A DNA stretch of 64,000 bases, taken from the NCBI RefSeq assembly GCF_036365525.1, contig NC_090395.1, forward strand, positions 65,497,326-65,561,325. Direction: 5' to 3'. Position numbers and translations under genes: made by a program. The notes under the pieces were generated by a model. It was not told the origin of the DNA, did not search any database, and was given only the letters and a program-made list of their open reading frames with translations. This document shows, piece by piece, positions 56,349 to 58,320 of the stretch (positions are counted from its first letter, which is position 1; every line of letters starts with the position of its first letter). The DNA comes from Heterodontus francisci. Its lineage: Eukaryota.

Positions 56349-58320
56349 TGTAAAGAGTTCTTTTTATGTTGTCTGATGCAACTTAAATGAGATGCGTGGA
56401 GTCTAGTTGGTTTTAGATCTCAAACAGATTTATTAGCAGCTAACAAGTATGTATATTGCAGAGCTATCTATTTACAGAACCTGCCTCTAGGTGTTCCAGT
56501 TACAGAGTGACTCTAGCTTTGAGTCACATGACTGCATTTTGGCACTTGGCTCATTAGCAGACTAAGATCTTCAAGAGCCATCATTCTTAAAGGCAAACAT
56601 GCAATATCCCCCTTCTGTCCAAAGATAAATCTCGTATGCTAAAAGTAAAAGCACATAAAATTAGATAACATCAAAATTATTCACACGTGGATAGAGGTTG
56701 TGAAATTTACAAACAGAGGCTCAAAACTCCATATATTTTCTCGGTGGTTTGACAACTCTTGCTCAGGGAATTTGCATCTCATCTGTTGCTGTTCTTTCTG
56801 AAGTTTCTCCTTCTCATTCATTCTTTTCTGTTACTCTGCCTTCACCCTGCTAAAATACTCTGTTGCTTTCCTCAGGATGACCACTTTTGAGGCCCTGTCA
56901 TTCTTGGAAAGTTCCGGCACCTCATCTCGAAGAGCCAACAGACAATGTTTCAACTCATTCCTCCTCTGTCTCTTCAGGACGTTGCTTGTCCTTCGCCTCT
57001 GCTCATACTCCGCATCGGAAGGCTTGGGGCTCAAGGTTGAGGACTTGGTGGGGTAAGAGTATTTGGCTATCTGTCTGTTCTGTGTCATAGTGATGCTGGC
57101 AGTTCGCTAAAGAGCAGAAGTGAAGGCGCGGCATCGTTGTGCTGTTGATGGGTTTCCAGACTGCACCATTTGATTCTGGCCAGAGTCTCCGAGCGGGTTT
57201 CGGTCCTTGGGGATTTCCTCTTGGCAATGCTCTCGTGGATAGCTATGATGTTAAGGTCTTTACATGCTGGTAGCCCCACCACTACTGGTCCGCTCAAGTC
57301 TACAAGGTAGAATGTTTGTGGTTTCCATGCTGACTTACCATAGCTGCATTGTATTGTCAGTGTGCCACTGCAAGGGATGGGTGACCCGCTGTATGCAGAT
57401 AACTGGGCAGTTGTCGGTTGTATTATTGATTTCCAATGACTCCAGTACATATCTTTGAGGATTCTGACTTGTAGGATATTTGCACTAGCACCTGTGTCAA
57501 TCTTGACCCTGAGTGTGTGTTTGCCAGCTTTCTTTGGGCACAGGATGTTAATGATAGCAAAAGCTTCCAGTTGTTGGGCTTCATCAACATAATGTGTCAG
57601 GTTCACAATGTGGAACCCCTGCTATCCTTTTGGCTGAGAATTGCTTCCCTCTGGGTCTCATCTCAGGTTTTTGCTGTGGAATTTGTGTATCGGCTTGTGT
57701 TTACGCCAATCTCTGCACCTCTCATTGCTGCTGTTGCTCTATTTCTGTGCCCTCCTGTGACTTCGGGCTGCATCTTCGGAGCCAGATTTCTTGCATCGGT
57801 GGGCCCAGTGTCCTTTGCACTGCACAGGTGTTGAAATGCAGGACAACTTCACAGTGAGTGGAAGCAGCCACACTTACTACACAGTTTGCTTGCTTTTTCC
57901 GACCTAGTTATTGTACCGATACCGTTGGCTGCATTTACTGCTTGCAGGTGCTGTTGTCCAGCTACGAGGTCTTGGTATTTCTTGCCATCTTCCAGCAGTG
58001 CATCGATGCTGTGGACTTTCTTTTCCCCCAAAAATTCCTTTTGAAATGCTTCAATGGGTGTTGATACAATCACCAGCTCCATTATTCAGCCTGACAGCTC
58101 AGCTTCGGAAAAATTGCAGTGTTTGCCCTTACTACAGCATCTACTGACAAACTGGTCTATTGATTCCTGCAGGGGGGGTGGGGGGGGAGGGAGGGGTGGC
58201 TGTTGCCTGCAGGACGTCAATTCCAGATGGTGAATTTGAAAATTCACATTTAATCTGAGCTGATCTTCTCGCATTTTCCATATCTTTGCAAGGTCGGGCA
58301 TCAGAAGCAAGAGTACAACC
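56349..58320 (-). mobile_element. 5'-truncated Gypsy-type LTR retrotransposon (gag-pro, pol replaced by myc fragment, PPT, LTR)
   Basis: gag (RQQP..ESIDQFVSR; CSKCG..H..CPAF zinc knuckle), protease VKIDTGASANIL, pol C-terminal remnant ARVVKPPRKYMEF* at 56721-56762, PPT AGAAGGGGGA at 56607-56616, LTR 56349-56606. Confidence 0.8.
56765..57225 (-). pseudogene. MYC-family fragment (box IV + bHLH-leucine zipper), disrupted
   Basis: KWCSLETHQQHNDAAPS (cf. HQQHNYAAP), then [65 protein letters not shown]; frameshift near 57088, stop at 56831. Confidence 0.9.

Follow-up and report, generated by a model that had tools for sequence, protein, structure and literature searches.

A Ty3/Gypsy retrotransposon family carrying a captured mych segment in the genome of Heterodontus francisci

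Oncogene transduction is classically a phenomenon of retroviruses in somatic tumours. In the gag-myc viruses MC29, MH2 and FeLV-myc, Myc stands in frame with the structural genes, pol has been lost and the virus depends on a helper. LTR-mediated retroposition is also known (Tan et al. 2016, PMC5131818), and pieces of host genes have been described inside the maize LTR element Bs1 (PMC13317346) and as transduced into an LTR element in HERV-K/FAM8A1 (PMC5131818). CrocERV29 carries KIT-ligand in 9 copies and CrocERV31 carries nectin3 in 6 (Chong et al. 2014, PMC4299795). The accessible part of a review of vertebrate transposable elements makes no mention of an element such as the one described below (PMC5381603). 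Here we have examined a shark locus in which a Myc-family domain lies within a Gypsy element, and we place the probability of Myc-family capture plus non-autonomous amplification at about 0.95.

The window (the whole stretch of 64,000 nucleotides that was analysed) was confirmed to contain a decayed, 5′-truncated copy of a non-autonomous Gypsy family. The family order is LTR-gag-protease-(Myc box IV-bHLH-LZ)-pol tail-PPT-LTR, and the window copy is read on the minus strand (Table 1). An earlier note, made from the letters of this DNA, had listed gag knuckles, protease, box IV, bHLH-LZ, pol tail, PPT and LTR on that strand, and all were found in the order given. It had also put an in-frame protease-Myc junction near 57225; the frame was right, but the junction lies exactly at 57233/57232. 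The 3′ LTR is present in this copy, but the 5′ LTR, PBS, leader and 5′ gag are absent. Window positions 57221-58290 are 76% identical to the autonomous element L080 (see below), and we read the 5′ LTR and most of gag as missing because this homology stops at 58290. The assignment of gag and protease rests on motifs, on alignment with the autonomous element and on matches to Gypsy-type polyproteins; a Pfam search of the window gag and protease returned 0 families. The best PDB matches of the Myc part are MYC (E~1e-17), and the C-terminal part of Myc_N gives a weak match in natural copy P0001 (E=0.0014). The mych segment measures 474 bp in copies of intact length. The pol tail, ARVVKPPRKYMEF followed by its stop codon, occupies 56762-56721 on the minus strand.

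Table 1. Features of the window element (positions in the window).
Feature	Position	Strand	Evidence or remark
gag, 3′ part with two Cys/His knuckles, decayed	57780..58290	-	translation; inner boundary approximate
gag-protease linker and aspartic protease	57233..57779	-	DTGAS at 57498; matches to Gypsy-type polyproteins
captured mych last-exon segment	56769..57232	-	85.5% identical to host C16 exon; in protease frame
Myc box IV-like motif HQQHNDAAPS	57121..57150	-	translation, protease frame
bHLH, basic region with H>S and E>K	56846..56998	-	Pfam HLH E=1.4e-11; column counts
leucine zipper, shortened at 3′ junction	56769..56845	-	stop at 56833-56831
last pol codons (integrase tail)	56721..56768	-	matches tail of autonomous element; out of Myc frame
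polypurine tract	56607..56616	-	same spot before 3′ LTR in other copies
3′ LTR, ~257 bp, CA end	56349..56606	-	matches L080 LTRs; paired LTRs in other copies
PBS-like TGGTGGCAGC (tRNA-Leu)	56339..56348	-	directly beyond 3′ LTR

The Myc part of this copy is interrupted by two stops, a TGA at 57087-57085 and a TAA at 56833-56831, by a 10-nt deletion near 57067 and by two compensating 1-nt indels near 56824/56816. The stop at 56831 reported earlier was recovered, and the 10-nt deletion corresponds to the frameshift that had been placed at about 57088. The PBS-like TGGTGGCAGC beyond the 3′ LTR suggests a tandem remnant or an aberrant integration end. Loci L005 and L098 likewise appear tandem, and at G000:C34:18.73-19.00 Mb we observed a tandem array with a period of ~3.05 kb and more than 70 units that match the tRNA-Leu 3′ end pattern. 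About 450 bp upstream of the window element, on the same strand, there is an Ig-domain exon (window 59058-58738, minus strand; Pfam Ig_3, E=1.3e-6), and the element probably lies within one of the introns of that Ig-domain gene. The window also holds two remnants of LINE-type reverse transcriptase ORFs, at 63885-62632 (minus strand, 417 aa) and 44649-45206 (plus strand, 185 aa), which from their motifs we take to be CR1/L2-like.

The host genome comprises 6.0 Gb. A genome search gave 9,668 candidates, 40 of which were scored and 30 fetched, and all 40 scored candidates, the window itself excepted, match the main pieces of the window at ~77-82%. Exact matches genome-wide numbered 614 for a Myc helix 2 motif, 276 for the window-type junction, 731 for the basic region and 299 for the start of RT, against 0, 0, 2 and 0 for the respective reversed-pattern controls. 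Because these controls are near zero, the element signal is not due to chance. The junction matches are spread over many contigs and dispersed copies have their own LTR pairs, which bears out the amplified non-autonomous family supposed in the earlier note. Capture-recapture gave an estimated family size of 1,600-2,500 copies: on contig C1, an overlap of 16 matches between 49 and 65 listed ones leads to 2,240-2,490 copies, and 11 of 29 junction copies carrying the Myc helix 2 motif lead to 1,620. The 95% ranges combined run from ~1,060 to 4,160, with a hard lower bound of 731.

Paired LTRs of more than 200 bp surround an element of ~3.1 kb in 14 of 30 copies. The LTRs have TG..CA ends, exact 5-bp TSDs were present at 6 of the 21 paired-LTR elements examined, and the primer site is complementary to tRNA-Leu (four of six loci match). 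The autonomous partner is L080, a decayed element of 5.43 kb whose LTR pair is 90.7% identical and whose LTR is common to the Myc family. Its Pfam domains follow the Gypsy order (RVT_1, RT_RNaseH, Integrase_H2C2/rve), and its integrase tail runs almost directly into PPT and LTR. With LTRs, PBS, PPT, TSD and pol order all found, the element is a Ty3/Gypsy LTR retrotransposon without env, and from the tRNA-Leu PBS and the two knuckles we suspect that it belongs to a Mag-like clade. Transduction of a Myc-family sequence by a non-retroviral LTR element, as put forward earlier, agrees with a partner that encodes RT-RNaseH-integrase and has no room for env.

A search with the integrase tail returned 30 loci, 28 of them without mych upstream (~7 translations inspected), and the family therefore spreads without mych as well. 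Fourteen integrase-tail loci analysed in full covered from 231 to 1,233 of the 1,328 residues of the reference polyprotein. Among the first 100 of the 299 RT-start matches, 83 continue into pol and 17 into mych. On this rough comparison, copies with Myc are probably at least as numerous as those of the helper type. Locus L074 (G000:C15:69.96 Mb) is a derivative of the same Gypsy family that arose by deletion and holds an unrelated short sequence, not mych, between RT start and integrase tail. Inverted mych fragments adjoin other copies at L027 (3443-3562) and L075 (452-684), which suggests nested or rearranged insertions.

In the host we located three Myc genes with an N-terminal exon, on contigs C5, C3 and C16; only MYC-, MYCN- and mych-like genes, and no MYCL, were seen among the scored matches (119 of 1,624 candidates scored). 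All 30 copies match the last exon of the C16 gene at 85.5-91.5% (overall identity range 85-92%), while the C5 and C3 paralogs give short weak matches only. The C16 protein bears the database label mych of Heterodontus francisci, with a 100% match to contig C16. mych has been described as a fish-specific paralog (PMC11457510, in its accessible part). In a tree of the C-terminal region (18 rows), all five element sequences fall together with the mych of the host (95/97) and away from the mych of other sharks and from MYC/MYCN. The donor is thus mych by identity to the C16 exon and by the tree, not MYC as first proposed, and c-myc and N-myc are ruled out. This position in the tree means that the capture postdates the split from those other sharks.

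Longer copies reveal how the segment was acquired. In them as much as 191 bp of exon 2 precedes exon 3; the splice join is exact in all 11 of the 11 examined, and the ~1.7-kb host intron is absent. Since the captured part begins in the 3′ part of exon 2, a product would lack MYC boxes I/II, as predicted from the window alone. The 5′ breakpoint in the last exon of mych is the same base in 30/30 copies, and the 3′ end falls within 3 bases in 27/30. In the longer arrangement (form A), mych takes the place of ~2.17 kb of the L080 pol (RT-RNaseH-integrase). The 5′ switch shows a 7-nt microhomology between pol and mych, GGATGCA, visible with some decay in 8 of the 11 long copies and interrupted in the other 3, and the 3′ switch a 6-nt one, CAAATT, plus a second in-register match nearby. 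No poly(A) or TSD was found at the cargo ends. Spliced cargo and in-frame microhomology joins are the likely signature of mRNA capture by template switching, and the double template-switch model, as presented in the accessible text of Tan et al. 2016 (PMC5131818), fits both joins. In the mechanism that we propose, host mych mRNA would have been co-packaged in the element particle and two template switches of the reverse transcriptase would have inserted the spliced mych in place of RT, RNaseH and integrase; with RT and IN supplied in trans by a helper, the non-autonomous copies could then have multiplied.

Other origins were weighed against these data. A LINE-made processed pseudogene that landed in a dead element would account for the spliced cargo. 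It is refuted by cargo ends without poly(A) or TSD, by microhomologies at both ends and by a pol that was replaced rather than interrupted; a single such pseudogene is rejected by the 276 exact junction matches too. Those matches, lying on many contigs, equally dispose of an assembly chimera, and a contig of another organism narrowly bridges the junction. It is very improbable, and largely refuted, that the family descends from a defective acute-transforming retrovirus like MC29, spread by infection with an env-bearing helper. Its architecture, which resembles that of gag-myc viruses, speaks for this origin; against it, the 5.4-kb partner with its integrase tail near PPT and LTR leaves no room for env, and no transactivation boxes I/II were captured.

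Form A is the original arrangement: both of its joins (5′ and 3′) are in frame, and it keeps stubs of RT and integrase. The earlier statement that RT, RNaseH and integrase are gone is therefore correct in that pol was replaced, but the original capture retained RT and integrase stubs. Form B has a larger removal on the 5′ side, also in frame. In form C, the window type, the protease end is joined directly to exon 3, again in frame, and a shortened 3′ side leaves the pol tail out of frame and the zipper truncated. Hence, the protease-Myc junction is a secondary in-frame deletion and not the point of capture for which it had been taken, the longer forms carrying exon 2. Among 30 loci chosen by Myc motif alone, 1 was of form A, 5 were of form B and 17 of form C; another 3 had different junctions and 4 were truncated. 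The frame from protease through zipper is open in 2 of the first 30 natural copies. Because intermediate forms survive, the order of events can be read directly: capture, loss of the E-box Glu and stepwise in-frame shortening.

The Glu of the basic region contacts the E-box, and the basic-region residues considered here read the E-box. Binding of DNA by the basic region is described in PMC7780693. We counted alignment columns in 96 non-redundant copies, a non-random sample in which 71 copies are of form C, 11 of form A or A-like, 6 of form B and 8 of other types; three duplicates and a locus that lacked an exon 3 match had been left out. Glu is retained in 4 of 90 copies, 3 of them form A, and is replaced by Lys in 70 and by Arg in 10; it occurs in 9 of the first 100 listed among the 731 basic-region matches genome-wide. 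His is retained in 24/88, the remainder being mostly Arg or its CpG decay products. In contrast to these two changed positions, the Arg that follows (Arg13) is retained in 83 of ~90 copies, and neighbouring helix residues are kept. The E>K and His changes had been ascribed to decay of the window copy; with Glu near-absent across the family, that explanation is rejected for E>K, and the His change too is largely family-wide. E>K, we infer, first appeared in form A and passed from there to forms B and C. In about nine in ten copies, DNA binding is predicted to be lost through such a change, and the oncogene-family domain therefore likely travelled the germline disarmed.

Constraint was assessed from N/S ratios of shared versus rare variants with CpG-prone sites excluded. 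The ratio was 0.18 for gag (27N/43S shared, p=1e-11), 0.19 for linker plus protease (11/18, p=1e-5) and 0.40 for the Myc segment (13N/9S of 22 shared, p=0.038), within which the bHLH-LZ by itself gave p=0.11. The helper integrase, which served as a control, had a ratio of 0.25 (3/5, p=0.056); Myc and gag-pro do not differ significantly (p=0.096). A stop is the commonest codon in none of the 175 mych, 175 linker/protease and 288 gag columns. Variants specific to form C gave 0.22 in gag (8N/11S, p=0.001) and no signal in protease (0.69, 6/3, p=0.7). Because 68 of the 96 common form-C gag/protease alleles also occur in helper copies, the purifying signal may have been imported by recombination. 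Linkage is weak (rho 0.11 for Myc-gag and 0.05 for Myc-protease; 2 of 45 marker pairs linked within Myc), and this low Myc marker linkage means that the shared variants define no clean master lineages. Both the allele sharing and the weak linkage probably result from extensive recombination with helper RNA packaged in the same particle.

Undisrupted Myc segments numbered 4 of 82 against 3.5 expected. Intact segments thus do not exceed the number due to chance, and nothing in this sample of ~4% of the family, outside which a single conserved locus could lie, points to conservation by the host; a domesticated host-conserved retrogene was rejected for the same lack of excess. A stop at mych codon 67 occurs in 38/92 copies, but a subfamily in which it is fixed was discarded: the stop is linked to none of 10 markers and is therefore read as recurrent CpG decay. 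Copy-copy identity in Myc averages 85%, with a maximum of 92%. Non-CpG LTR divergence is 0.105 for 13 form C copies, 0.095 for 3 form A copies and 0.091 for 5 autonomous ones; judged by these sequence divergences, the family in this sample is old, extinct and of about the same age as its helper. With a mutation rate of 7e-10 per generation from the epaulette shark (PMC10587355), its age would be ~7e7 generations, which is implausibly old, and for this reason we offer no date.

In protein databases, fused protease-Myc proteins matched only under the label Heterodontus francisci, and none outside this lineage was annotated among 65 near-length matches, 1 longer match (same species) and the best 150 of 959 representatives. 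Contigs of two further organisms (B and C) extend over 30/30 bins of one natural copy, and the form-C junction is bridged by an organism-C contig whose short side has 31 letters. The family therefore likely predates the split from organisms B and C. As to expression, no RNA dataset was listed as containing the element. Contigs of runs X8 and X12 (one sample), guessed to be RNA, span the junction, and 0 of 8 listed pieces of run X5 bridge it. Gene models P0003, P0004, P0006-P0009 and P0022, six named myc or N-myc-like and one uncharacterized, resemble element copies. Model P0212 fuses element gag and bHLH-LZ to SLC2A10, either as a prediction artefact or by exonisation. With at least 6 copies annotated as "myc/N-myc-like" genes, the number of Myc genes in this shark would be overstated.

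What the cargo does for the element can be read in several ways. On sequence grounds we incline to a translated but disarmed passenger over a MAX sink or inert cargo. The fused frame would be translated as a Gag-protease-Myc polyprotein, the open frame would be selected because of Gag in cis or RNA stability, and E>K would owe its spread to tolerance of a Myc that cannot bind DNA, or to hitchhiking. The mild synonymous bias of the Myc segment itself fits more than passenger status, and box IV-bHLH-LZ was kept in every amplified form while its flanks were lost, which a pure passenger need not do. These same points would favour a selected effector, a possibility that we rate as unlikely: a DNA-binding-dead bHLH-LZ, released by the protease, would sequester MAX and, in germ cells or embryos, loosen the control exerted by MYC/MAX or MGA/MAX (PRC1.6), thereby aiding spread. 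Retention of the bHLH-LZ in A, B and C against loss of RT/INT stubs and exon 2, replacement of Glu and His while Arg13 and the neighbouring helix residues persisted, the roughly estimated parity or excess of Myc-bearing over pol-bearing copies and the repression of germline genes by PRC1.6, described for mouse in the accessible literature, all point in this direction. Against it, nonsynonymous changes make up 13 of the 22 shared variants in Myc, no significant bias is seen in the bHLH-LZ by itself, form C truncates the zipper and undisrupted Myc segments are at the expected number. Also unlikely is a transposon-encoded, natural Omomyc-like effector that would titrate MAX from MYC and MGA/PRC1.6 in germ cells, an advantage that might have driven Myc-bearing derivatives without the Glu to outnumber the helper.

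Inert cargo appears improbable. Here LTR, PBS, PPT and packaging signals would suffice, the open frames would follow incidentally from the register of the microhomologies and from renewal of gag-pro by helpers, and E>K would have drifted with a successful master. Extensive allele sharing with helpers, the weak Myc-gag linkage, the lack of excess of intact Myc segments and the 28 of 30 integrase-tail matches without mych are consistent with it; however, the four amplified joins lying upstream of or inside the frame are all in frame (4/4; naive chance ~1 in 81), and the form-C-specific gag variants are synonymous-biased. The disarmed passenger remains the reading that we prefer for the role of the cargo.

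The capture mechanism was already known; new are the cargo, the copy number, the preserved intermediates and the family-wide loss of a DNA-reading residue. We found no report of this family, of Myc-family cargo or of comparable copy numbers in the literature covered, with subscription papers and Repbase/Dfam outside its scope. The gag-myc viruses are alike in having Myc in frame with the structural genes of a retroelement, pol lost and a helper required. They retain both the transactivation domain and the ability to bind DNA and are passed on by infection, whereas the shark cargo is without boxes I/II, has lost the E-box Glu and travels in an element without env. In the accessible part of Tan et al. 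2016 (PMC5131818), retrocopies occupy single loci or few insertion sites, compared with an estimated 1,600-2,500 copies here, and a nested in-frame deletion series and Myc-family cargo appear only in the shark. CrocERV29 and CrocERV31 are also vertebrate germline LTR elements with a cancer-related host mRNA, amplified and old; they differ, according to the accessible text, in being retroviruses with separate ORFs under purifying selection (PMC4299795), while the shark element is a Gypsy, with cargo fused into the polyprotein and no copy-level conservation. Bs1 and HERV-K/FAM8A1, as far as their accessible descriptions go, are of low copy number and their cargo includes no transcription-factor dimerisation domain. 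Omomyc and acidic-Max resemble the shark fragment as isolated bHLH-LZ domains that would compete for MAX (PMC7780693); both are engineered proteins, and Omomyc is, in the part of that source available, partly reliant on DNA binding, whereas the shark fragment is predicted to be without it. Whether hosts tolerate only disarmed oncogene cargo, or elements turn their cargo into effectors, thus becomes testable in a shark in which, unlike in the classical retroviral cases of somatic tumours, it was a Gypsy element without env that picked up a Myc-family domain and multiplied it in a vertebrate germline.
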